This document shows positions 4,901 through 34,105 of a stretch of 64,000 bases of DNA, one piece after another. The notes under the pieces are model-generated. The model saw only the letters and a program-made list of their open reading frames with translations. It did not search any database and was not told where the DNA came from. This DNA comes from Candidatus Binatia bacterium (GTDB lineage Bacteria; Desulfobacterota; Binatia; UBA9968; CAXXLF01), in the NCBI GenBank assembly GCA_963664015.2, contig CAXXLF010000001.1, forward strand, positions 256,001 to 320,000, in the 5' to 3' direction. Within the stretch, counting starts at the first letter, position 1. Every line of letters starts with the position of its first letter. Both the position numbers and the translations under genes were made by a program.

Positions 4901-4992
4901 TGGCGGAGAGGGAGGGATTCGAACCCCCGTTACCCTTACGGGTAAACCTGATTTCGAGTCAGGCGCCTTCAACCGGGCTCGGCCACCTCTCC
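4901..4992 (-). tRNA. tRNA-Ser(CGA)
   Basis: Minus strand GGAGAGG...CCTGA-CTCGAAA-TCAGG anticodon arm, long variable arm, GTTCGAATCC, CCA end. Confidence 0.97.
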
Positions 4993-5016
4993 CCGGGGGA
5001 TACGGACGGTCTCAAA

Positions 5017-5511
5017 CTAAGCGAGAATTTCGTTTCGGCTCCTAAGACTGTTAAAAAAACCACTCAGAAGCTCGGAGCATTCTTTTCTTAAGACACCTTG
5101 GGTGATGTCCAGACGATGGTTGAGGCGAGGGTCATTGCAAATTTGATAAAGGGATTCCACCCCTCCCCCCTTGGAATCCAGGCATCCAAATACCAGACGG
5201 GAAACCCGCGCTTGAACCAAGGCGCCCGCGCACATAATGCAGGGCTCTAGGGTAACGTACAAAGTGCACTCCTCAAGACGCCAGCACTTGAGTGCTTGAG
5301 AGGCCTCCCTCAACGCCAGGATCTCTGCATGGGCAGTCGGTTCTTGCCGTTCTTCGCGCCGATTGTATCCTTTACCGATGATCGTGTCCTCATAGACCAC
5401 CAAGGCCCCGACCGGAACTTCGTTCTTGACCAGGCCCTTGCAGGCCTCTCGCAAAGCAAGCTGCATATAGGATCGGTCTTGTTCGTCCTGCTTGGCCGCG
5501 CTGTCGTCCAT
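5017..5511 (-). CDS. tadA: tRNA adenosine(34) deaminase
   Basis: EVPVGA, PTAHAEILALREA, LYVTLEPCIMCAGA, LNHR motifs. Confidence 0.95.
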   Translation of the reverse strand: MDDSAAKQDEQDRSYMQLALREACKGLVKNEVPVGALVVYEDTIIGKGYNRREERQEPTAHAEILALREASQALKCWRLEECTLYVTLEPCIMCAGALVQARVSRLVFGCLDSKGGGVESLYQICNDPRLNHRLDITQGVLRKECSELLSGFFNSLRSRNEILA

Positions 5512-21978: not shown

Positions 21979-22665
21979 TTAGTTGTTACCACTCTCTAAC
22001 TTATGGGTGAACCCGATTTGATCAAACGGGTTCACTACGCTGGTAGCGACATTACGAAGATGAGCATTGATGCGTTTTAGATAGCGGTAATACAATGCCA
22101 ACGAAGCTGCATCATTGCTTGGGATTTCTTTATCCGTACCTTTAATGTAATCAATAACACGTTGATCGCAAAGCCGACTCACCCACTGGTAATCGCCAAG
22201 GAGCTTCTCCGCGCCCTTGGCGTCCGACGCCTCAAAAATATTCCGCACCTGTCTAAAGCTATCTTCAACCGCAACTTCGATCTTTCTTAGATCCTCTTCA
22301 AACATTCCTCCATGCAACCGGGCCGGGTGGTTCATGGCCAATTCCACGATATTCTTTGTGTAGTCTCCAACCCGCTCAATATCGATAATAATGCTCACCA
22401 AGAGTAACCCCGAGTTGATATCCGCCGCCCCCGCCACGGTTAGATGGCTCAACACATTCCGGCGCACCTCCCGCTCGTATTTATTGACCTCAATATCCCG
22501 TTCGTAAATGTCGATATCGAGTTGACTGATATCCATTTCCCGCAAGGATATTTTGGCTTTGACAAACATCTCATGGGTAATGTCCACCATCTGGTATGAG
22601 CGCTTGTAAGCCCTATCGAGAAGCGTGTCTTTGCTAAAAATTGCGAATAATTCTTTAAGTATCAT
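21979..22665 (-). CDS. PhoU-domain phosphate transport regulator
   Basis: DIEVNKYEREVRR, DIERVGDY, YLKRINAHLRNVATSVVNPF; directly downstream of Na/Pi transporter. Confidence 0.88.
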   Translation of the reverse strand: MILKELFAIFSKDTLLDRAYKRSYQMVDITHEMFVKAKISLREMDISQLDIDIYERDIEVNKYEREVRRNVLSHLTVAGAADINSGLLLVSIIIDIERVGDYTKNIVELAMNHPARLHGGMFEEDLRKIEVAVEDSFRQVRNIFEASDAKGAEKLLGDYQWVSRLCDQRVIDYIKGTDKEIPSNDAASLALYYRYLKRINAHLRNVATSVVNPFDQIGFTHKLESGNN

Positions 22666-22673
22666 AGATCACC

Positions 22674-23762
22674 TCACTGAAAAAAGATGATTACGGCTAT
22701 GGGTAAAAGGAAAAAGACCGTAATAATGTAGAGAAATGGGACAATTCGGTTGATTACTGCCCACTCGGAAACTCTCCTGGACAAGGACAGAGGCAAACTT
22801 CTAAGCGGCCACCATATCACGATTCCTGTAATATTGAAGAGCAGGTGCACAAATGCGACGACCACGGCCTTAGGGTTCTCGGTAGCCAGGGCGGCCAATA
22901 TGGCGGTAAACGTGGTCCCGACATTGGCCCCAAGCGTATAAGGGAAGATCTGTTCAAGGCTCAAGATGCCGGCACCGGCCATAGGGATAATTAAACTCGT
23001 AGTGATGGAACTGCTCTGGGCTAAAATCGTGAGAAGCAGGCCAACAATAAAACCTCTCATCGCAGTCTTGAATAGAACCTGGTCAAACCACACCTCTGCC
23101 CTTTTAACCGCGAGCACTCTAAGAACGCTCACTAAACGATTGAGAGATAAAAAGAGTAAAACTAGAGACAAGGCAAGAAGAACCCAGGGGTAGGCTTCGA
23201 ACCAGTGGACCAGGAGATTGACTAAGGGCTTCGTAGCAGACCTGACGGGATTGAAGAGCTTCATACCGCCGGAATGTTGAAATTTATCCGCCATGTGCGT
23301 CGCGGCAATGCCAAGAAAATTGGTCATGGATTGCAGCGGAAAAATGACCAATACGGAGAGCAGGTTAAAAAAATCGTGGACGGTAGAAGCGGCAAAGCAA
23401 CGACGAAACTCTTGAGATCGATTAATATGCGCCAAGGAGACCAACGTATTCGTCACCGAAGTACCGATATTGGCTCCCATGATGATCGGTATAGCGTTGG
23501 GAACGCTAAGGACATTACTACCGACCATCGCAACAACGATGGAAGTAGTCGAGGACGAACTCTGAATCAAAGAGGTAGCCAGAATACCAATGAACAGTCC
23601 CACCAATGGCACAGATGTTGTGGCAATCATGGTTTCGGCAAAGCCCTTGCCAAACATCTTCAAGGCCACACCCATCAGAGCCACACTGGTCAGAAACAAA
23701 TAGAGGAAGAGAAACAGCAACAGGAGAGGAATAATAGTGGTTTTGACTGTCTTGCGATCCAT
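22674..23762 (-). CDS. Na+/Pi cotransporter (NptA/SLC34-like)
   Basis: Two QSSS motifs and two GANxGT motifs (GANIGT, GANVGT). Confidence 0.93.
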   Translation of the reverse strand: MDRKTVKTTIIPLLLLFLFLYLFLTSVALMGVALKMFGKGFAETMIATTSVPLVGLFIGILATSLIQSSSSTTSIVVAMVGSNVLSVPNAIPIIMGANIGTSVTNTLVSLAHINRSQEFRRCFAASTVHDFFNLLSVLVIFPLQSMTNFLGIAATHMADKFQHSGGMKLFNPVRSATKPLVNLLVHWFEAYPWVLLALSLVLLFLSLNRLVSVLRVLAVKRAEVWFDQVLFKTAMRGFIVGLLLTILAQSSSITTSLIIPMAGAGILSLEQIFPYTLGANVGTTFTAILAALATENPKAVVVAFVHLLFNITGIVIWWPLRSLPLSLSRRVSEWAVINRIVPFLYIITVFFLLPIAVIIFFQ

Positions 23763-23837
23763 TCTTATTTACGGCTTCTTTCCTGAAGACTCGCTTCTCA
23801 ACTCATGGACCATCCAACCATGGGTCAACTATGACTC

Positions 23838-23882
23838 TGGTGCGCCCGGAGGGATTCGAACCCCCAGCCTACAGATCCGTAG
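23838..23882 (-). repeat. att site: duplicated 3' part of tRNA-Arg(ACG)
   Basis: 45-bp exact direct repeat of 32606-32650, from the anticodon loop to CCA. Confidence 0.96.
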
Positions 23883-23978
23883 ATTGCTGGAACCAGTAAT
23901 GGGATGCACTGAGGGGGAATAGAAGTCTTGATTTGCAATGACTCGTTCCCTGTCAGTCCATGTGCTTTTATCACAGTC

Positions 23979-24162
23979 TGGTAGCAAAGTGGTAGCAAGA
24001 ATATTTCACAAACGACTTCCCCAAAATTCTGAAACGAATACCGGGGAGCCGTGTAAATGGACGAATGGGTGACTCGATGGCCTACAGATACCTTCTTTGT
24101 GGATGCTTAAAATCACTTGCAAACTCAGTGGGTTATTCTCACCTGCTACCAGTCTGCTACCA
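23979..24162. repeat. Candidate integrase arm-type sites, left end
   Basis: TGGTAGCAA at 23979 and 23990; inverted CTGCTACCA at 24143 and 24154; same motif three times at 32528-32557. Confidence 0.7.
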
Positions 24163-24610
24163 TCATGTAGGGAAGGCGCATGAGCAATAATCCCAAGCGT
24201 GGCAGAAGCGTTCCCCCAGGAAACAGAACCGCTCTCCAGCATGGGCTTCATACCTATAGAGTGAGACTGAACGGCGATAGGTTGGACCGAAGATCTGGGC
24301 TGTCACGGTCTGGATGAAGTCGGATGGCCACAGCATCCACCACAACGGACAAAGTACCCCAGGCGGGGGAGGGTCGATGTCGAGTGAGGTGAATGAGAGA
24401 TCCTGGATGAGTCCCGCCAAGAAAATTTTACTATATTTTCACACGAAGCGATGGGCGTCCCTGGAGTTGAAGCGGGCCTTGTCACACGATATCCCCGACT
24501 TTGCCTTACGGTCCTTCTAAGCCCCCTCAGAAGCCAACTCATTAAATGTCACTTTTGGATAGGCTCAGACCCGCTCTGGGCTTGGGTTTACTCGGTGTTA
24601 GACAGCCAGG

Positions 24611-24690
24611 ACGCAATTAATGAGCTAATTAAATGCGTCTTGCCGGTCATTGGGTAAGGAAACAGCGGCCCAATGTGGACCGCCGCCTTC
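24611..24690. repeat. 80-bp unit 1: 28-bp palindromic site plus hairpin
   Basis: ACGCAATTAAT-GAGCTA-ATTAAATGCGT then GGTCATTGGG..AACAGCGGCCC..GGACCGCCGCCTTC; homologous to 31144-31223. Confidence 0.8.
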
Positions 24691-24718
24691 GTTAGCTGCG
24701 CGCAAATTGGAGGTCTAT

Positions 24719-26380
24719 CTATTTCTTGTGGATTACAATGCTGCCGCCGCCCAATCCAGTCGCATCATCCCCGGTGTCAGGAGCCTCCAGCTTGTTGTCA
24801 TAGACTATTATGTCAGTTGCTGTGTTCTAAATCTTGATACGAAATCTATCAACTCCACCACCGCCAGCGATGGCTCCGTCAATTGCCGTTAGCATAAAAC
24901 CGTAGTTATCACCTCCATTGATGGTACCGACACCCTTGAATTGAGCACGAGCACCGGCCACGACCAACCACTCGTAGGTGTTCGAGTGGAAGTTCAGGTC
25001 TGCAACTTTGAACTGAAACTCGGTCACGCCAGTCGGGGTGTGGGCGCCCTTCTTGTACTTTGATACAAACCCGAAGTTCGCCTTGCCTGTGAGCGATGGA
25101 TTAGGGGTGTAGCCTCCCCAGGGAGAGTTGATCCAACCACCGCCGGTGATAAAACCAGCGATCGGATCGTAAACGGCGAGCAATACACACGTTTCATTGC
25201 CAGTGTTACCTGATGCATCAGTTCCAGATACACAGATTGTGTGAACGCCAGTGGATGTAAACCCGGATAGAATTGATGTCACTGCCTCGACAACGTCATC
25301 GAAGCTACCATCCCGCGCGGTCATTGGAACTGAAGCTGCACCGTCAATTATGTAGCTGGCAGCGGCGATGGTCGAGCCTCCCGTGCCCCAATCGTCGACA
25401 TCGGCGATCAGTCTGACATCGGTATTCACAACAGCTGGGTTTGCGGTAGCCAAGACGGCAGCGGTCTCCGGACCTTCATCGTCTGCCACCAACGAGAAGA
25501 CATATGCTGCTCCGGTTATCCGGGTGGGTGAACTAGCGTGGTCATGGGTGTGCGCACCAATTAGGGCCGTATTGCCGCTCATCGCTACGCCGATTCCGAA
25601 GCGGCTACCCTCGTGCGAATCGCTTGCGGTGAATTTGGCTTCCCTGGCCCAAGTACTGCCGCTAGGGACAAAGGAATAGACAGCGCCGGTATAGTTGTCT
25701 TCTCCTTCGCCGGCAGCCCCAATCAAAGCCCGGTCGCCATATAGCGCGAGCCCAAAGAAACTCAACGATCCGAACTGAGCTGGATCGCCTAAGAACTTCT
25801 GTGGTTCCACCCATTCCGTGCCATCGAACTCGAACACGTAGGCAGAGCCACTGGAATCGCCATTGCCGTCGCCGTTATCGTTTATGCTACCAATGATCGC
25901 CGTGCCGCCGTTGAGGCCGACACACTCGCCGAGCCTGTCGTTGGCTGCGGCGTCACTAGGAGTGAGCTTTTGCACTTCACTCCACGTCGCCCCGTCGAAA
26001 GTGAATACGTAGGCGGCTTCACCGCCGAATCCGGTACCGATGATCGCTGTGTTGCCATCGAGAGCTACGAAGAATCCAAACCGATCGAACGCAGCACCGT
26101 CGCTGGCAGTGAGTTTCTGCACTTGAGTCCAATTCGTTCCATCGAACGTAAACACGTAAGCGGAGCCGGTTGCCTCTCCGTTGTCAGTATCTCCACTAGC
26201 GCCAATCACAACCCCCTCGCCGTCGAGCGCGACTGAACGACCAAAAACATCAAAGGTCTCACCATCGTTGCCCAACATTTCTGCCAGCTCCGTTGGGGGC
26301 TCGGCCTTCGCAGTATTCACATAGAAACCGTTCAGGACAAGCATGATTGCGGCTATCGGGATAAGAGCCTTGATAGTCAT
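24719..26380 (-). pseudogene. Secreted FG-GAP (integrin-alpha-like) repeat protein with C-terminal beta domain, one in-frame TAG near the 3' end
   Basis: AAGGAGG RBS and signal peptide; five FG..VA..G...IIGA repeats; TAG at 24827-24829 followed in frame by 35 codons (NTATDIIVYDN...LGGGSIVIHKK). Confidence 0.8.
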
Positions 26381-26529
26381 GGACACCTCCTTGAGGAACA
26401 TCTCTGTCACTCTGCTGGGCCTCACATCGAGCAAGCTGGTTGTTTAGAGCAAAGGGGGAGGTCTTATTGGCGGATAGCGCCCCAATATCACCGTGAGAAA
26501 TAGTGTCAAGGGGCTAAAGTTTCGACACG

Positions 26530-26562
26530 ACGCAATTAAACGACGCTTTAATTGATTCCTAC
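26530..26562. repeat. Site 2: 28-bp palindromic site, 33-bp direct repeat with site 3
   Basis: ACGCAATTAAA-CGACGC-TTTAATTGATT-CCTAC; 31/33 identical to 31144-31176. Confidence 0.85.
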
Positions 26563-26568
26563 CTCAGA

Positions 26569-26598
26569 TTGACATAACAGCCCGTTATCGAGTATTGT
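26569..26598 (+). promoter_or_regulatory. Putative sigma70 promoter just inside site 2
   Basis: TTGACA-N18-TATTGT. Confidence 0.4.
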
Positions 26599-27279
26599 TC
26601 CCAAGGCTCGAAAAGCGAGTTTCTACCAGAGACACGGGAGCCTGGCTGCTTTGCTACGATGGTCGTCGCTGGCTATCTTCGAAAGCAGGCACCACGGAGC
26701 CGCGTGCGGCAATTTTTGATTTTCGCGCGGCCTCATTCGCAGGAGATGGCATTTGGAGGCCCCCACGCGCCCCGGCTCACAGTCCGATCGCTCGGGTATG
26801 CTTGCTCCCTGTTGAAAGCCGCCCTCATCCGATATAATCGGGGTAGCTTCTCGAACGAAGACCAACAACGAAGCCCCAGACAATACGATCCGGGCGCGTT
26901 TTTCACGTTCGACCCGATGGTGACGGGGGCAGCATCCGTCGTCTCTGGAGCTGTCGCGCTGCTTGGGAAGTGCTGGAGAACTCCAGCCAAATGTCAAGGC
27001 CGTGTTTCCGCGCCAGTTCGATATTCAAACGGCCTTCGAGTTTGCTTGTATCGACACGGCGGTCATAGACGTGCGCGTCCCGAGCCCCAGCAGTACGGAG
27101 GCCGGCCGTTGGCGAGTTGGACACGGAAACCAACGCGGCTTTTGGAAACCATCCAAGCAAGCCGCGTCAGGGATTGGAGTGGGACAAGCCAATGTGGTTC
27201 TTTCGTGTCAATGGGGCAAAATGGTGGAGGCCCGAAGTAGACCTCGCATTGTTTCCGTTCACTCAACCGAAAGCGAGAG

Positions 27280-28215
27280 GTGATGACCATATTTGACAGT
27301 AAGATCGATCGGGTATCGACGGCGGTATTACTTGCTGCTGGCACTGGAAGCCGACTTCAGCCGATAACGGATAACGCACCGAAGTGCCTGACCGAAATCA
27401 ACGGGGTGACCATACTTGAACGACAGCTCCATGGCTTGCGCCAGCAAGGCTTCAGGCGGCTGGTCGTAGTTTTAGGCTACATGGGTGATTGTATCCGTGA
27501 ATTCTTGGTAGATCATGCCGCCGGTCTGACGGTTGACTACGTTACCAATCCGCGGTATCGGACGACCAATAACCTTTACTCGCTGTGGCTCGCTCGAAAG
27601 GAAGTTCGTGAGCCTTTTCTGCTGGTTGAGTGTGATCTTGTTTTCGACGCGTCCTTGCTGGGAGACATGCTTCATCCCAACAAGATCGCCGTCTCGCAGA
27701 GGCGGGCCTGGATGAATGGCACGACGGTCACGGTGGACCCTTCCCAGCGGGTTACGACTGTGCAGGTCGGTGGCAGTGCGATTCCCAACAACTTCAGCTA
27801 CAAGACGGTTAATATTTGCAGCCTCTCGATGGCATCGTGGCAGCGTGTCCACGAACGATTGACCCGGCGCGTTTTAGCAGGCAGAGTGAACGAGTATTAT
27901 GAGGCCGTGTTCGCGGACATGGTCGCGGACGGCAGCCTTTCTTTTGATGCTGTTTTTTTTGATCCCGACCGTTGGCACGAGGTAGACACCCTCGGGGATC
28001 TGCACGAATGCGAACGGCTGTTCTCGATGCATCCTGATCAAATACCACATCGGGTGAGCATAGCCACCTCTGGAACCCGAACGTTCCGCCGAATTCCCCA
28101 AAGTCGGACAAGCCCGTTCGCCGCGGTTGGTGCAGTCCCGAATTCACAACGGGAGAAGTTAGACCCAGGAGACCAATCCGCCATTGCTAAAAAACATGAC
28201 CTATCTCGATCGTGA
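27280..28215 (+). CDS. Nucleotidyltransferase, phosphocholine cytidylyltransferase (LicC)-like
   Basis: AVLLAAGTGSRL..PKCL, NPRYRTTNNLYSL, WHEVDTLGDL. Confidence 0.88.
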   Translation: MMTIFDSKIDRVSTAVLLAAGTGSRLQPITDNAPKCLTEINGVTILERQLHGLRQQGFRRLVVVLGYMGDCIREFLVDHAAGLTVDYVTNPRYRTTNNLYSLWLARKEVREPFLLVECDLVFDASLLGDMLHPNKIAVSQRRAWMNGTTVTVDPSQRVTTVQVGGSAIPNNFSYKTVNICSLSMASWQRVHERLTRRVLAGRVNEYYEAVFADMVADGSLSFDAVFFDPDRWHEVDTLGDLHECERLFSMHPDQIPHRVSIATSGTRTFRRIPQSRTSPFAAVGAVPNSQREKLDPGDQSAIAKKHDLSRS

Positions 28216-29305
28216 ATCCCAGGAGCAAAAATACGAATTCATCACCGGCCAGCATGGCGGTTACTGGCGTCATGATTTCGTCGACCATGCCTATCTCTAC
28301 AATCTCTATTTCCCTCCGGATGCACTGCTGGCTTATTTTGGAAACCACCTGCGAGAACTGGTTCTAAATTATCCTGTTGCCCAGGACGTTCTTGCCGGTC
28401 TGGTCGGCACGTTGATCGGACAACCATCTGAACGGATTGTCGTTGGCAACGGTGCCTCGGAACTAATCAAGGTCATCTCGTGCAATCTCTCAGGTCAATT
28501 GATCGTCCCGGTACCCTCGTTTAACGAATACGTCAACGCAGCTCCAACGGATCGGGCTATCGAGTTTCCCCTTGGGCCGCCCAAATTTGAGTTGGAAGTC
28601 GACCAGTTTGCCGCCCAGGCCGCTCGCTGCAAGGCCGAGGTTGCCATCGTGGTAACGCCGAACAACCCGACATCGCTTGTCGTGCCAAGGACCGACCTAC
28701 TCCGCCTGGCAAAGAGCCTTGCCGGCCATGAATGCACACTGATCGTTGACGAATCCTTCATTGATTTTGCCCCCCATCGCGAACAGTTGACGCTGGAGCG
28801 AGACATCGAGCACCATCCTAACCTAGCTGTCATCAAGAGCATGAGCAAAGCCTACGGCATCTGCGGACTACGCATCGGCTATTTGCTCACCGCCAACAGC
28901 GAACTTGCCGAGACGATTCGCGGCCGGATTCCGATCTGGAACATCAACGGCTTTGCCGAGGCGTTTCTTCGTCACGTGCCGAAGTACCGCCTGGAGTTCA
29001 GTGAAAGCTGCCGGCAGGTTGCGGCCGATCGGGACGCTCTTTATCGGCAGTTGTGTACGGTTTCCGGGATGACCGCCTACCGGCCCACCGCAAACTTTAT
29101 TTTCTGTCGTCTTCCCAACGGGGCTGCCAGCAGTCCCGAGGTGACCCGCCGTCTGTTCGTCGAGCACAACATCTACGTAAAACACTGCCAGGGCAAAACG
29201 CTCCCCGACGGCGACCGCTATCTTCGAATTGCCAGCCGCACTCAGCCTGAGAATGTGAAACTGGTCGAAGCGTTGAAAGATATCATCGGCCCGAAAGATC
29301 ACTGA
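28196..29305 (+). CDS. PLP-dependent class I/II aminotransferase-fold enzyme (HisC/CobD-like)
   Basis: VVGNGASELI, PNNPTS, VDESFIDF, KSMSKAYGICGLRIGY (PLP Lys), ANFI. Confidence 0.9.
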   Translation: MTYLDRESQEQKYEFITGQHGGYWRHDFVDHAYLYNLYFPPDALLAYFGNHLRELVLNYPVAQDVLAGLVGTLIGQPSERIVVGNGASELIKVISCNLSGQLIVPVPSFNEYVNAAPTDRAIEFPLGPPKFELEVDQFAAQAARCKAEVAIVVTPNNPTSLVVPRTDLLRLAKSLAGHECTLIVDESFIDFAPHREQLTLERDIEHHPNLAVIKSMSKAYGICGLRIGYLLTANSELAETIRGRIPIWNINGFAEAFLRHVPKYRLEFSESCRQVAADRDALYRQLCTVSGMTAYRPTANFIFCRLPNGAASSPEVTRRLFVEHNIYVKHCQGKTLPDGDRYLRIASRTQPENVKLVEALKDIIGPKDH

Positions 29306-29958
29306 TGCAAACCTCCAACCCGCCGCAACCGATGAGACCGACCATCATTAGCTTTGCCCTGGATCTTCCCAATATCTGTTCTCTGGCGGGGCTTTTCTGC
29401 GCGCTGCTCGGCATTTATTACGCGATCCGCGGAGTTTTCCCTGCAGCTATGATCGGCATTCTCTGGGCCGTGGTCTTTGACTGGTTCGACGGAGTGATTG
29501 CCCGCCGGCTTTCCGGTCGAACCGCGTCGCAACGGGCCGTTGGAGCGCAACTGGATTCCCTGATTGACCTGGTGAGTTTTTCTGTTTGTCCAGCCATCGT
29601 GTTACTTAGCTACAGCCAATACAGTCTCTTGTTTATTCCCGGAGCGTTTGCGATTCTTTCGACAGGGGTGCTGCGACTGAGTTACTTCAACGTATTCGGC
29701 CTTGTGGACGGATCGACCTATATGGGGCTCGCACTCGATAATAACGTTCTCGTTCTTGCGTTTGTCTTCCTGTTCGATGGATTGGTCCTCCGAGACACTT
29801 TTGCAGTCATCCTTCACCTAACGCTACTGGCCCTAGCAGCCATGAACGTGGCGCCCGTTCGAACGCCGAAGTTGACAGGTGGATGGTATTACGGGCTGGC
29901 GGGTTATGCCTTGGTCATGACAAGTGTTTTCGGTTGGAGATGGGCTCAGTTGCCCTAG
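29305..29958 (+). CDS. CDP-alcohol phosphatidyltransferase family protein
   Basis: DWFDGVIARR...GAQLDSLID signature; hydrophobic; start overlaps upstream stop. Confidence 0.92.
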   Translation: MQTSNPPQPMRPTIISFALDLPNICSLAGLFCALLGIYYAIRGVFPAAMIGILWAVVFDWFDGVIARRLSGRTASQRAVGAQLDSLIDLVSFSVCPAIVLLSYSQYSLLFIPGAFAILSTGVLRLSYFNVFGLVDGSTYMGLALDNNVLVLAFVFLFDGLVLRDTFAVILHLTLLALAAMNVAPVRTPKLTGGWYYGLAGYALVMTSVFGWRWAQLP

Positions 29959-30019
29959 GAATCAAAGAAACACGTCTTGCAGGTCACACGATTCCTAATC
30001 GGATAGCGTGCAAGAATTC

Positions 30020-30868
30020 TTACTCCACAAGGCGTAGCTTGAAGAAGTGATTCTGTAATCTAGGCCAAGCGATGTTTAGTTGAGAGAGCACTCGCGGTAG
30101 AGCCCAGAAGCTAATCGGCGTGGTCCCTCTGAGCGCCCACCACATCAAGGAACCAAGCGTGGGAGAATCCTTGGGCAAGAAAGGTAGCCACTTGCGACGC
30201 AGATCAACCAACTCCTCTGCAGTCACCATGCTGGTGTAACCGTAGTTCCGCCGGACTTCCACGCGAAAGGGTCCCGCGTCCTCAAACAGTCGATGATACA
30301 GACTTACGCTTCGGTAGACTGCCTGATACTCGCCTCGTGCCAAGGATACCCCCTGCTGCACAGTCGACTCTCGGAGGATGATCGAACCCTCTTTGCTAAG
30401 GCGGTGTTTCAAAGAGTGGAGCAGCGCCAGGACGTCAGCGTTCTTCAGATACATACACAGGCCACCCAGGAAGATCATGTCAAATGATCCTTCCGGAAGG
30501 CTTTTCCGACCGTCGCCTTCGAAAATCTCAACATTGGATAGGCGAGCCACTCTTTCCCTAGCAGCCTTCACCATCAAGGGACTACGGTCGATCCCAATGA
30601 CAGCTTTGTAGCGCTTGGCGAAGATCTCGGTCCAGGCCCCCGCCCCACAGCCAACGTCAAGCACTCGCCCTGAGGCACACACAACGTCGAGCCAATCTCT
30701 AACAATGCGTATCTCTTTGCGTAGTCGATATCGGGCCGCACTGGCTGGCAGATTGTGCTCATGGGCCATCATGCTGACAGTGCTTGCTGTGCCTCCCCCT
30801 ACACCATTGAAATAACGTTTGACAGTTGCATCATTGATCTGTTGTTCGGTGGAGGAGTGGTCATTCAT
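30020..30868 (-). CDS. Class I SAM-dependent methyltransferase
   Basis: VLDVGCGAG motif I, FDMIFLGGLCMYL, GSIILRES; likely ATG at 30868. Confidence 0.9.
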   Translation of the reverse strand: MNDHSSTEQQINDATVKRYFNGVGGGTASTVSMMAHEHNLPASAARYRLRKEIRIVRDWLDVVCASGRVLDVGCGAGAWTEIFAKRYKAVIGIDRSPLMVKAARERVARLSNVEIFEGDGRKSLPEGSFDMIFLGGLCMYLKNADVLALLHSLKHRLSKEGSIILRESTVQQGVSLARGEYQAVYRSVSLYHRLFEDAGPFRVEVRRNYGYTSMVTAEELVDLRRKWLPFLPKDSPTLGSLMWWALRGTTPISFWALPRVLSQLNIAWPRLQNHFFKLRLVE

Positions 30869-31143
30869 CGGTATTACCTTTGAAAAAGTCAACGATCGGT
30901 CTTAGCATTGAGGCATGGCCACCGAGAACCCAAGAATTCTGCTAACGGCCACTTTGATACATAAGTAAGCCAGCTTCACCCTGGCGACACAAATCACAGA
31001 GCGACTGGCTCTAAAATGCTTATGTTCCCCCTCCTTGGCCTTACGTCACGCTAGAAGCCATTCAACGATTGACGAGGCTCACGCTTATGGTCTGAGACTA
31101 AGAGACCCATATCACAGAGGAGATAATTGTCAATCATCCTAGA

Positions 31144-31223
31144 ACGCTATTAAACGACGCTTTAATTGAGTCCTACGGCCATTGGGAACGACAACGGCGG
31201 CCCTTTTGGGGACCGCCGCCTTC
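31144..31223. repeat. 80-bp unit 3: 28-bp palindromic site plus hairpin
   Basis: ACGCTATTAAA-CGACGC-TTTAATTGAGT then GGCCATTGGG..AACGGCGGCCC..GGACCGCCGCCTTC. Confidence 0.82.
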
Positions 31224-31330
31224 AGTTTTCACAGTGCTATATGATTTTATTAGCAAGAACCGGTAGGACCTCTCAACTACTCCCGGTTTGGATGGTTGCA
31301 TCCGACATTCACGGTAATCCCTGGCAATAT

Positions 31331-31810
31331 CTACTGCTCGAAGCAATAGAGTAGTTTCATGTTGTTGCAGGAGGGGGAGATCAGGGGGGCCTCCTCCCTC
31401 CAGGTAGAGGTGTTAGAGTTCGTTTGACCCACGCTTGCATTATCGCCGGAACCGTTGAGCGTCCAGTTGCTACAGTTGCCGTTGAAGCTATCCCCGTTTT
31501 GGTCGGTGCTTGTCCATGCATCTGTCACGGGGGCAGCGCCCTGCACCTCCGTGAGATCAATGGAGATCGTAAGGACCCCGTCCGTGAGGTCGGCCCAATT
31601 TGCTGCGACCTAAGCGCCGTCTGTTCGTACATATGGTACGACCGACTGAATAAATCGGGTGCTGGGCGACATGATGGAATCCTATAACCAGGCCTAGTAG
31701 GTTCCAAACAATCCCGCTTCGTGGGAACGCTGGTTACAGATCAAATCTGCGCCCTGGAGTCCTCCCAAAATGCCGTCGTGTACGGAGCTGGTGACGAAGA
31801 CCGTCTTCGT
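31331..31810 (-). pseudogene. DUF1554-like domain protein, 5'-truncated, three in-frame TAG codons
   Basis: One frame reads KTVFVTSS..GILGGLQGADLIC..GTY*AWL*DS..DGA*VAANWADLTDG..CSNWT..LLYCFEQ. Confidence 0.78.
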
Positions 31811-31822
31811 ATTCCGTGAACC

Positions 31823-32544
31823 AAGGAAGCGGGTCTCAGCCGGTCCACCGTCAAAAACCTGATCGCACCACTCAGGGCAATGTTCAATCCGGCAGTAAAG
31901 CTCGGCAACCACCTCCCAGAGCAGGACACCACGAAGATCGAGCCAAACCCTCTTAATGAGGAAGAAGTCCGTCATCTGCTGGCCACGGTCCGGGAAAGGC
32001 TACCGGAACACTACCCGGTGACCCTTTGTGCTGTGAGGGCCGGTCTTCGGCTCGGGGAGCAGATCGACTTCCACAGCCGGTTCATCACGGTGAATTACAA
32101 TTTCAGCCGGGAGGAATTCACCTCCCCAAGAGTAAGAAGAGCCGCCAGGTGGACAGGAGTGAGCAGCTGGCCTATGTCCTGCCGTCCCTGCTACGGAAGA
32201 GAAAAGCCCATGCGCTCAAGAGCGGCACCGGGGAAGTCGGGGAGTTCGTATTCCACTCCCCTACCGGATCCCGGCTGGATGGGACCTCATTTGCCAAGAG
32301 GGTCTTCCACAAGGCTCTTTCACTGGCAGAATTGAGACGGGTGCAGTTCCATTCGTTGCGTCACTTGTTTACCAGCTTGCTGCTCTCACGAGGTGCGGAC
32401 TTGAACTACGTGAAGGGTCAGCTTAGGCATCATTCAATCACCCTCACGGTGGACACATACCGCCACAGGATGGATCAGAACGACAGGTCAGCCGTTGGCT
32501 CACTGGATGATCCGGGTTGGCAGAGCGTGGTAGCAGAAAGGTAG
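31823..32544 (+). pseudogene. Tyrosine recombinase/integrase, 5'-truncated and frameshifted
   Basis: GLSRSTVKN..LRAMFN, AGLRLGE, frameshift near 32128, FHSLRH, QLRHHSITLTVDTY; next to the tRNA att site. Confidence 0.92.
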
Positions 32545-32557
32545 CAAATGGTAGCAA
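32528..32557. repeat. Candidate integrase arm-type sites, right end
   Basis: TGGTAGCAG, AGGTAGCAA, TGGTAGCAA in tandem at 10-11 bp period. Confidence 0.7.
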
Positions 32558-32605
32558 TCGACGGGTCAGAGGAGCAGACTTTGGAATATAAGTTGCTGAT
32601 CTGTA

Positions 32606-32682
32606 TGGTGCGCCCGGAGGGATTCGAACCCCCAGCCTACAGATCCGTAGTCTGTCGCTCTATCCAATTGAGCTACGGGCGC
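32606..32682 (-). tRNA. tRNA-Arg(ACG)
   Basis: Minus strand GCGCCCG..ACAGA-CTACGGA-TCTGT..GTTCGAATCC..CGGGCGCACCA. Confidence 0.97.
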
Positions 32683-32959
32683 TTAAACGGTTGTCGTAAA
32701 AGGCGAGTCCAGGGCCAGCCAACCGAGAACCCAAAGTGATCCATTCTCACGAATGATGGTGGATTAATTACATTGACTCCCAGTCAACAAAAACACCGGA
32801 TACCATATCACAGAGAATTGGGCTTTTCCACAAATGCCCAAATTGTCGGACCGGAGGATGAAACTAAATTTACAATACCGTCAAGATCCTCATCCGCACA
32901 ATATAATCCCAGGGAGAAATCTCGAGTGTGGGGCGGCAGATACGGCCATGATGCGAATT

Positions 32960-34105
32960 TCAATCTCTCAGATTAGGCAGGGCCTCACGGGCAAATAGCT
33001 CCATGCTCTTTGTCGCCATATCCAACGGCATCGTAGCGAACGGAGCGTAAACCATCATAACCCCCGCACCCAATTGCTCTTGCTGGTAACGGATCTGACG
33101 GGTCACCGATTCCGGGTCACCGACGATGCACAATCCCTCCTTCAAAATATGGTCGAGGCTCATACTGCCGGCCTTAGCCAGGGTCTCTCCAAGAAACTGG
33201 GCGCCCGCCGACTTGCCTTTTTTGTAATCAAAGGATCGATCCGTTCGCGAGGCAGCCCGGTAGCGCTCGATCTGTTCGGGGTAGCTGCGGGCCACCGGGA
33301 TCTCTTCGAAAAACTGCCGTATATAAGGCTCAACCTCCTCCCGTGCCTGCTGGTCTTTGGGGGCCACGTAGAGCTGCCTGGAAAACATAATGTGTTCGGG
33401 GCCAGGGGTCCAACCGCATTCCTTCTGGGCATAACTTCGATAGTAGTCGAAGTTCTCCGCCATTGACGCGGTGGGGGCAAAGGAAGCGGCGACGGGAATG
33501 CGCTTTTTTGCGCACCATTCAATGCTTTCCGCCGTGGCGCCTGCCATGATGATCGGAGGGTGGGGCTGCTGCACCGGCCGCGGCATGATCGAGATGTTTT
33601 CGTACTGGAAGTGTTTTCCATTCCAGGCGAAGGGTTCGGGAGCGGTCCAGGCCTCAATAATCAATTCCCAGGCCTCCTCAAAGCGTTCTCGGGCCTGGCT
33701 GGCATCAATGTTGTAAGCGTACCACTCAAGAAAGCCCCCGCGGAGAAACCCGGAAACGATCCGCCCACGCGACAGCACGTCCAGCATGGCCAGCTCTTCG
33801 GCTAGCCGTACCGGGTGGGCGTGCAGTGGAACGCAGTTACCCAATAGAACTAGCTTGACGTTACTGGTCTGAACCGCAACCGCCGCCGCCATGACATTGG
33901 GCGAAGGGGTACCGTGGGTTGTATAGTGGTGCTCCGTGAGACACACGCCGTCGAAGCCGAGTTCGTCGGCCCGCTTTAGGTATTCCAGGTGGCCGTGGTA
34001 CTGCTGGATCCCGACCTCTGGGTCCCAAAGTCTTCCTGGATAGGGATAGAGCATACGGTTACCAGGTTTGGGCCAAAACACCTGATCAAACAGCCATACT
34101 TTCAT
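32960..34105 (-). CDS. LLM-class (luciferase-like) flavin-dependent oxidoreductase
   Basis: ADELGFD..LTEHH, HPVRLAEELAMLDVLSRGR, PRPVQQPHPPI. Confidence 0.93.
   Translation of the reverse strand: MKVWLFDQVFWPKPGNRMLYPYPGRLWDPEVGIQQYHGHLEYLKRADELGFDGVCLTEHHYTTHGTPSPNVMAAAVAVQTSNVKLVLLGNCVPLHAHPVRLAEELAMLDVLSRGRIVSGFLRGGFLEWYAYNIDASQARERFEEAWELIIEAWTAPEPFAWNGKHFQYENISIMPRPVQQPHPPIIMAGATAESIEWCAKKRIPVAASFAPTASMAENFDYYRSYAQKECGWTPGPEHIMFSRQLYVAPKDQQAREEVEPYIRQFFEEIPVARSYPEQIERYRAASRTDRSFDYKKGKSAGAQFLGETLAKAGSMSLDHILKEGLCIVGDPESVTRQIRYQQEQLGAGVMMVYAPFATMPLDMATKSMELFAREALPNLRD

Follow-up and report, generated by a model that had tools for sequence, protein, structure and literature searches.

What are the three short palindromes that punctuate the accessory genes beside a tRNA-Arg gene in a Candidatus Binatia bacterium, and do they mark the boundaries of a gene-cassette system? 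The window analyzed here is the whole 64,000-nucleotide stretch of contig CAXXLF010000001.1, for which a preliminary description had reported three 28-bp sites (sites 1, 2 and 3, Table 1), each made of two 11-bp inverted arms around a 6-bp spacer, and had read them as a cassette system belonging to a genomic island. All three palindromes proved real in position and sequence: with ≤2 mismatches, the pattern originally given for them matched the three sites and nothing else in the 64-kb window, where 100 dinucleotide-preserving shuffles gave an expectation of 0.00, and all three are intergenic. They are not, as had been proposed, a feature of the island, since the same repeat recurs across a bacterial family, in two classes of sites and accompanied by conserved modules on its flanks. 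Based on sequence comparisons, we see about an even chance that these palindromes are the recombination sites of a lineage-specific cassette system served by a putative enzyme acting in trans.

We evaluated the distribution of the repeat in the genome carrying the window (G000, 3.51 Mb on two contigs, C1 and C2) and in the other four genomes of its family (G001–G004), of which G002 and G004 share one genus and G000 belongs to another; the relatives compared are for the most part metagenome assemblies, and gene calls throughout are crude longest-open-reading-frame (ORF) calls. Two classes of sites can be told apart by their spacer, i.e., CGACGC in class B and GAGCTA in class A. Requiring ≤3 arm mismatches and a recognizable spacer, we identified 19 sites in G000, or 23 with weaker copies added by eye; 20 of these 23 lie outside any ORF, and the only ORFs overlapped by the remaining three are unsupported ones of 89–117 amino acids (aa). 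Matches on the two strands numbered 107 + 107 in G004 and 3 + 4 in G002 with ≤2 mismatches, and 28 + 25 in G001 and 74 + 68 in G003 with ≤1 mismatch. A sample of 400 other genomes from across the phylum yielded no match to the class B pattern, and the unit formed by a class A site and the conserved block directly before it (M1, ~105 nt) was found in 4/4 same-family genomes and 0/36 genomes of two sister families. Among the genomes sampled, the 28-bp palindromes are a repeat family restricted to one bacterial family. In a collection of species representatives, the only records with multiple matches among the matches listed were entitled “uncultured Candidatus Binatia bacterium” and “Deltaproteobacteria bacterium”, and the exact B pattern was recovered from at least 120 short metagenome contigs, often close to contig ends.

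Two further observations concern repeats in these genomes. In G003 (genus g2), the dominant B variant has a left arm ending in T instead of A, with an unchanged spacer; it is the arms, and not the core, that vary between lineages. Separately, a ~146-bp repeat (G004 L154:8144–8290) is present in at least 16 copies in G002, at 88–91% identity, and probably represents another family, similar to miniature inverted-repeat transposable elements (MITEs).

No part of the site is better conserved than the asymmetric spacer. Across 58 sites picked by an arms-only pattern that left the spacer free, we observed CGACGC 46 times, CGACGT twice, GAGCTA 9 times and GAGCGA once (class B representing 48/58), and within class B the information content amounts to 2.0 bits at five spacer positions and 1.8 bits at the sixth, compared to 1.0–2.0 bits for arm positions. 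Folded as RNA, B palindromes are weak (−3 to −5 kcal/mol), which points to recognition as DNA. On the left of a B site there is often a module, M3, recurrent in G004, with a leftward promoter and leader whose TTGACA box lies 10 nt from the arm. On the right there is either a rightward TTGACA promoter 11–23 nt away, or a 10-nt linker followed by an A site and a GC hairpin resembling a terminator for the right-hand gene. When no B site precedes an A site, M1 is found directly before it.

The M1 block itself is represented in G000 by eight long and three partial copies (nhmmer). It was considered as a structured RNA and rejected, with RNAalifold on 19 copies yielding −2.6 kcal/mol for the plus strand and 0 for the minus strand, and no M1 match in Rfam; over window positions 22000–34000, Rfam returned only the tRNA and two sub-threshold matches. 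The window copy includes a 24-codon ORF (24546–24620) for a hydrophobic peptide, whose stop codon falls inside the left arm of site 1. By eye, this frame is kept in many copies of the relatives; it is broken or start-less in 3/8 G000 copies, and its substitutions are not mainly synonymous.

Next, we examined how sites are arranged, considering adjacent sites ≤6 kb apart in six G004 arrays and in G000. Adjacent sites were co-oriented in 40/40 pairs from the G004 arrays and in 8/9 pairs from G000, and site orientation is independent of replichore, contig C1 being a single skew arm on which sites face both ways. An M1–A unit followed by B sites is the arrangement seen in 4/6 G004 arrays and in the G000 clusters; the G004 heads abut housekeeping genes (metH, and purN with purM), and the M1–A units of G002 are found at loci other than these array heads. 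Between sites, we identified predicted transcription units, complete in themselves, of 0.6–4.6 kb with their own promoter-like boxes beside the sites and genes running in both directions, which bears out the earlier claim that the sites bound promoter–gene–terminator units. Genes were called to the left and to the right of 49 G004 sites; they were convergent in 15 cases, divergent in 8, and in tandem in 26. Close paralogous cassettes kept the orientation of the gene relative to the site (5/5, 4/4 and 2/2), and one distant family was split 3:1. The cargo is diverse, with PF04392 substrate-binding proteins, adenylate cyclases with TPR repeats, receiver domains, and O-methyltransferases as recurrent families, and the transposases detected in or beside the six G004 arrays amount to one Mutator and one IS3.

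The array genes are accessory. To the left of the G004 array L153, the backbone is 84% identical to G002 until ~20 bp before the first site, and a search for empty sites indicated that L153 and G002 share this left backbone only; for the genes of L153 and of a second array, L154, a single DNA match was obtained in same-genus G002 (73%, at an unrelated place). The backbone next to a solo G000 site (C1:478755) has no site in its G002 or G004 counterparts, and an AhpC/2OG gene with a decayed site is common to G000 and G004 (84%).

Homology between loci also changes at the sites. We pooled 140 loci (617 kb, 323 sites) and retained matches of ≥400 bp and ≥80% identity: of the 77 match ends that were internal, rather than imposed by a contig end, 23 were located at a site in both partners and 10 at a site in one partner, even though sequence within 40 bp of a site represents only 5.7% of this pool. 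Locus L149 and the metagenome contig L243 provide an example of such a switch, being 99% identical through the palindrome and unrelated directly past its right arm. Among 285 oriented sites, 42 pairs displayed one 80-nt flank at ≥90% identity and the other at ≤45%, with some of the left-flank matches reflecting the shared M3 module rather than orthology. Rare arm variants stay linked to the flank they belong to, which locates the crossover within the spacer or beside it. Mosaicism is cassette-wise: a guanylate-cyclase cassette is found at five places in G004, where one pair matches from site to site (75%) and a duplicate at 93% identity extends from base 1 of its site. It also includes transfer between genera, as window positions 26529–30892, carrying a lipid head-group module, match G004 at 94.2% over 4364 bp from the outer edge of site 2 onwards, including the rare right-arm variant of this site; flanking backbone genes share only 73–75% DNA and 62–66% protein identity.

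Public reads were also searched for rearranged versions of the locus. Contigs from runs X19 and X20 are identical to the window, and a contig from run X1 spans site 2 colinearly. The only site-touching joints in such contigs (31168→24605, 24641→32604, and 26554→31134) were rejected: their sides are only 26–37 nt long, and they resemble cross-matches to doublets, located elsewhere, in which a B site and an A site are joined by the 10-nt linker (B-10-A).

In the mechanism that we favor, a site would consist of two 11-bp inverted arms flanking an invariant asymmetric 6-bp core, with class B sites separating cassettes and class A sites either heading the array, usually after M1, or following a B site across the 10-bp linker. 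A cassette would be a full transcription unit, with its own promoter 10–23 nt from an arm and, in many cases, a terminator in the form of a GC hairpin, and recombination inside the site would lead to cassette gain, loss, or movement. In each exchange the left arm would remain with the left neighbor and the right arm with the right neighbor, so that all sites of an array would be kept in direct orientation. Catalysis may be provided by a site-specific recombinase encoded elsewhere in the genome, the candidates being the host XerC/XerD pair or an unrecognized recombinase, in both cases with a putative action on these sites. A broader proposal, which we advance tentatively and rate somewhat short of even, is that of a third bacterial gene-array system beside integrons and dif modules, in which a trans-acting recombinase or a re-targeted XerCD would assemble, shuffle, and exchange self-expressed cassettes, in arrays that would begin at a leader-like M1–A anchor by housekeeping or tRNA-Arg genes.

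Several results weigh against recombination sites of this kind. Relatives do display variable cargo and breakpoints at the sites, in support of the preliminary description. No recombinase was found to co-occur with the arrays, an outcome which that description had listed among those that would refute it: none of the 13 PF00589 matches in G004 adjoins the six arrays, and 0/437 ORFs on 120 B-site metagenome contigs resemble six G000 tyrosine recombinases. Serine recombinases were discarded as candidates, being represented by a single broken copy in G000 and by none in G004 or G002. A Y1 transposase scoring above cut-off was likewise missing from G000, and Cas1 was detected in none of the four site-rich genomes G000, G001, G003, and G004. 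Breakpoints and sites coincide only in part, with 44 of the 77 internal match ends located at no site, and the match of the lipid module to G004 ends at the start codon of the methyltransferase gene (30892) instead of site 3, which leaves unsupported the earlier idea of a clean insertion of this module at one site with duplication of that site. The modules M1, M3, and the hairpin are conserved too, i.e., the repeat unit exceeds the palindrome, and A-type flanks are also found beside B spacers (site 3 of the window, and C2:760805), which is unexpected under strict spacer-matched exchange. Finally, homologous recombination between the repeats alone could yield both breakpoints at sites and direct orientation.

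Among possible enzymes, G000 encodes a XerD, which scores 366 bits and passes the cut-off, as well as a XerC-like gene, whereas the integron-integrase cut-off is reached by none of the recombinases tested. A dif-like 28-mer with a near-canonical XerD-type arm is located at C2:36802–36829 in G000, inside a GC-skew plateau (30–190 kb). This sequence has no match in G001–G004, so XerCD is neither implicated nor excluded by it. Tyrosine-recombinase remnants occur 1–4 kb from four G000 site clusters and were rejected as a single site-linked family, the best pair showing 35% identity over 60 aa. A recombinase at C1:1086446–1087279, near the solo site C1:1082952, was likewise set aside as sporadic (5/41 genomes, including site-less families, and none in G001 or G003). 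Y1/IS200 elements were rejected because neither the 527-bp IS200 copies nor the 320-aa Y1 loci of relatives carry the palindrome. In addition, a 388-aa tyrosine integrase with 99% protein identity across genera (G000 C1:1223400–1224700 and G004 L169, C5 end) indicates a very recent transfer of another mobile element, with no palindrome nearby.

Two other explanations can be proposed for the same sites. One, which the preliminary description held as its main alternative and which we consider unlikely, is that of an operator for a lineage-specific transcription factor, with operator–promoter modules spread and shuffled by homologous recombination. A dimer, or a tetramer on B-10-A doublets, would then bind ~60–72 bp upstream of sigma-70 promoters and control an accessory regulon of substrate-binding proteins, adenylate cyclases, response regulators, and stress genes. 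Sites do lie 10–23 nt from consensus −35 boxes, as expected for an activator and as a further point against recombination sites, and at many of them the distance is stereotyped (TTGACA 10 nt from the left arm in M3, or 11–23 nt from the right arm); however, 15/49 sites are found between convergent gene ends, and the 40/40 co-orientation holds regardless of gene direction. Similarly, the four arms of B-10-A doublets resemble tandem operators, yet the best-conserved element is a non-palindromic spacer with two forms only, where an operator would be expected to show conserved half-sites around a free spacer. The signaling-rich cargo and the lack of a recombinase linked to the arrays would both be consistent with regulation, whereas a DNA-binding regulator domain was detected in 0/39 of the site-flanking G000 proteins scanned with Pfam.

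The other explanation, in our view improbable, is that of a selfish composite intergenic repeat of the MITE, repetitive extragenic palindromic (REP), or Correia kind, non-autonomous and spread by a transposase encoded elsewhere. Here the arms would be terminal inverted repeats, the 6-bp core a fixed target or duplication, and the cassettes simply genes located between insertions. Such an element would fit a copy number ranging from ~4–7 in G002 to >100 in G004 and G003, as well as copies at the contig ends of fragmented assemblies and the dominance of a genus-specific arm variant in G003, but its spacer would have to be invariant rather than target-dependent. Promoters are indeed included within conserved flanking modules; these modules combine freely, however, and no length-defined element with constant ends can be recognized. 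Also at odds with a selfish repeat, the inter-site genes are accessory in their own right and travel together with a site, no family of transposases follows the distribution of the sites, and Y1 elements lack the palindrome.

The window illustrates this organization at the scale of single genes (Table 1). As originally described, sites 2 and 3 are direct repeats (94% identity over 33 nt), and sites 1 and 3 head homologous stretches (70% over 97 nt) which both close in an 11–13-bp GC stem (−20 to −25 kcal/mol) containing GGACCGCCGCCTTC. A hairpin module like the one following site 1 also follows A sites elsewhere, and the window copy of M3 is 80% identical over 162 nt to C1:830757–830917 and 77% identical to C2:2236574–2236703. 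TTGACA boxes facing into the modules can be seen at both sites 2 and 3, with that of site 2 called by the promoter scan and that of site 3, on the minus strand, visible in the sequence and missed by the scan. One detail of the initial account is weaker. The homologous units were said to lie downstream of minus-strand surface-protein genes, which is the case at site 1 with its FG-GAP gene; the neighbor of site 3 is a broken remnant, with no tblastn match to the FG-GAP gene and thus not homologous to it.

Table 1 Features of the window around the three palindromic sites (positions are those of the 64-kb window).
Feature	Position	Strand	Evidence or remark
45-nt perfect copy of the 3′ part of tRNA-Arg(acg), distal island end	23838–23882	−	100% identity with 32606–32650
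M1 block, ~105 nt, conserved, before A-type sites heading arrays	24500–24610	+	alignments, nhmmer
Site 1	24611–24638	+	class A palindrome, spacer GAGCTA
GC hairpin then T-rich run, likely terminator of the FG-GAP gene	24652–24690	−	−19.9 kcal/mol
Cassette 1: FG-GAP repeat protein, 535 aa	24827–26434	−	PF14312, E 1e-61
Site 2	26530–26557	+	class B palindrome, spacer CGACGC, rare right-arm ending ATT; near-identical site and flank in G004
Promoter-like TTGACA-18-TATTGT, 11 nt from site 2, facing the lipid module	26569–26598	+	promoter scan, 10/12 matches
Cassette 2, plus-strand genes: uncharacterized 193-aa ORF, MobA-like nucleotidyltransferase, class I/II aminotransferase, CDP-alcohol phosphatidyltransferase	26659–29958	+	
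Cassette 2, S-adenosylmethionine (SAM) methyltransferase	30020–30892	−	G004 homology stops at start codon
M3, conserved module with a leftward promoter and a leader; TTGACA box 10 nt to the left of site 3	31027–31143	−	
Site 3	31144–31171	+	class B palindrome, spacer CGACGC
GC hairpin homologous to that after site 1	31190–31223		−24 kcal/mol on either strand
Broken remnant of a secreted-protein gene	31331–31975	−	faint DUF1554 match, E 0.058
Frameshifted tyrosine integrase of the island	31880–32544	+	PF00589, E 9.5e-14, catalytic half only
tRNA-Arg(acg), island integration target	32606–32682	−	

The array of the window rides on a decayed island at tRNA-Arg. In G002 and G004, the orthologous tRNA-Arg is located ~200 bp from the Na/Pi-cotransporter gene, i.e., the left neighbor of the island, and the island is absent. 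Together with the 45-nt repeat and the broken integrase, this closeness delineates 23883–32605 as an 8.7-kb integrated island, for which all the usual marks of tRNA integration were found (a repeat of the tRNA 3′ end, an integrase, and an empty site in relatives). Its cargo includes, in order, the FG-GAP protein, the lipid head-group module, the methyltransferase, and the secreted-protein remnant. Since the integrase goes with the 45-bp tRNA-Arg repeat, it is the integrase of this island; nothing ties it to the 28-bp sites, which leaves without support the suggestion that their own recombinase may have been lost near position 31815. Overall, the initial interpretation is partly supported, for its cassette boundaries and variable cargo but not for its island-specific system and co-occurring recombinase. 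Elsewhere in G000, two M1 units have the 3′ end of another tRNA-Arg gene 170–190 nt away, and one of these units closes a second island.

Other loci related to those of the window were noted along the way. This second G000 island, with a 45-nt direct repeat, spans C2:328203–332705 in a tRNA-Arg(cct) locus extending over C2:328203–332780; it displays integrase remnants at its far end, an MscS cassette between B and A sites, and an M1 block 170 nt from the tRNA. Beside the solo site C1:1082952, a fused nucleotidyltransferase–CDP-alcohol phosphatidyltransferase gene, a paralogue in kind of the lipid module of the window, is found with a DUF4202/HD gene at C1:1083104–1084997. Finally, the window includes a tmRNA gene at 4901–5168 (ARAGORN), whose 3′ part is overlapped by a tRNA-Ser call.

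If these palindromes are recombination sites, cassette capture would follow rules unlike those of integrons, based on a short double-stranded palindrome, self-promoted cassettes, and no linked integrase, and more than 100 sites could accumulate on one chromosome. This would explain the large arrays of paralogous transporters and cyclases of this uncultured lineage, along with the crossing of genera by the 4.4-kb lipid head-group module. A third gene-array system, should there be one, would drive the expansion of gene families for signaling and transport within a marine family of bacteria (related records being titled Candidatus Binatia). Even if only homologous recombination at an operator were involved, a regulatory repeat would act as a seam of genome mosaicism.

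How do these arrays compare to known systems? A search for the site sequences in the main text of articles returned one unrelated primer match, and the literature on integron-like chromosomal arrays yielded integron and Acinetobacter papers only, with nothing matching. Clustered regularly interspaced short palindromic repeats (CRISPR) are co-oriented, partly palindromic repeats with a leader at one array end, and the 28-bp partly palindromic, co-oriented repeat and leader-like block at the array end are features shared by our arrays; in contrast to CRISPR, the inter-repeat units are gene units of 0.6–4.6 kb, and the four site-rich genomes yielded no Cas1. REP sequences and bacterial interspersed mosaic elements, associated with RAYT transposases, are likewise many short extragenic palindromes at gene boundaries with a copy number varying between relatives. 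Here, however, no Y1 gene flanked by the repeats was found, the stems are AT-rich with an invariant loop, and co-oriented arrays bound mobile units.

The attC sites of integrons are structured and range roughly from 57 to 141 bp. The sites described here are not attC-like, as had been stated from the start: they are 28 bp long and conserved in sequence, where attC sites are long imperfect palindromes conserved in structure, a comparison made with no dedicated attC model applied. In further contrast to integrons, no IntI was found beside the arrays, the cassettes have their own promoter-like boxes and putative terminators and genes facing either way, where integron cassettes are promoterless, and some are multi-gene and extend up to 4.6 kb. 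The likenesses are a site sequence highly uniform within the lineage and a distinct first site with a conserved adjoining block (M1 plus A), which recalls the integron attI. Co-oriented arrays of sites that separate mostly single-gene accessory cassettes are common to our arrays, integrons, and clusters of attC sites lacking integron-integrases (CALINs), and many arrays here lack an adjacent integrase, as in CALINs (for integrons and CALINs, see PMC4889954 and PMC9024848).

The closest geometry is that of dif/pdif sites. In the pdif modules of Acinetobacter plasmids, as presented in PMC13141974, accessory-gene modules are bounded by 11-6-11 sites, as in our arrays, and host-encoded XerC and XerD act in trans on pdif, with exchange between sites that have identical or near-identical spacers. 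The same source describes sites that alternate in orientation and spacers that differ between sites, whereas ours are all direct with an invariant spacer (PMC13141974). In agreement with the earlier statement that the arms depart from the XerC/XerD consensus, they match the XerC and XerD arms of the pdif sites given there at 4/11 and 6/11 positions (PMC13141974). Compared to plasmid-borne pdif modules, the arrays described here are chromosomal and reach more than 100 sites in some genomes.

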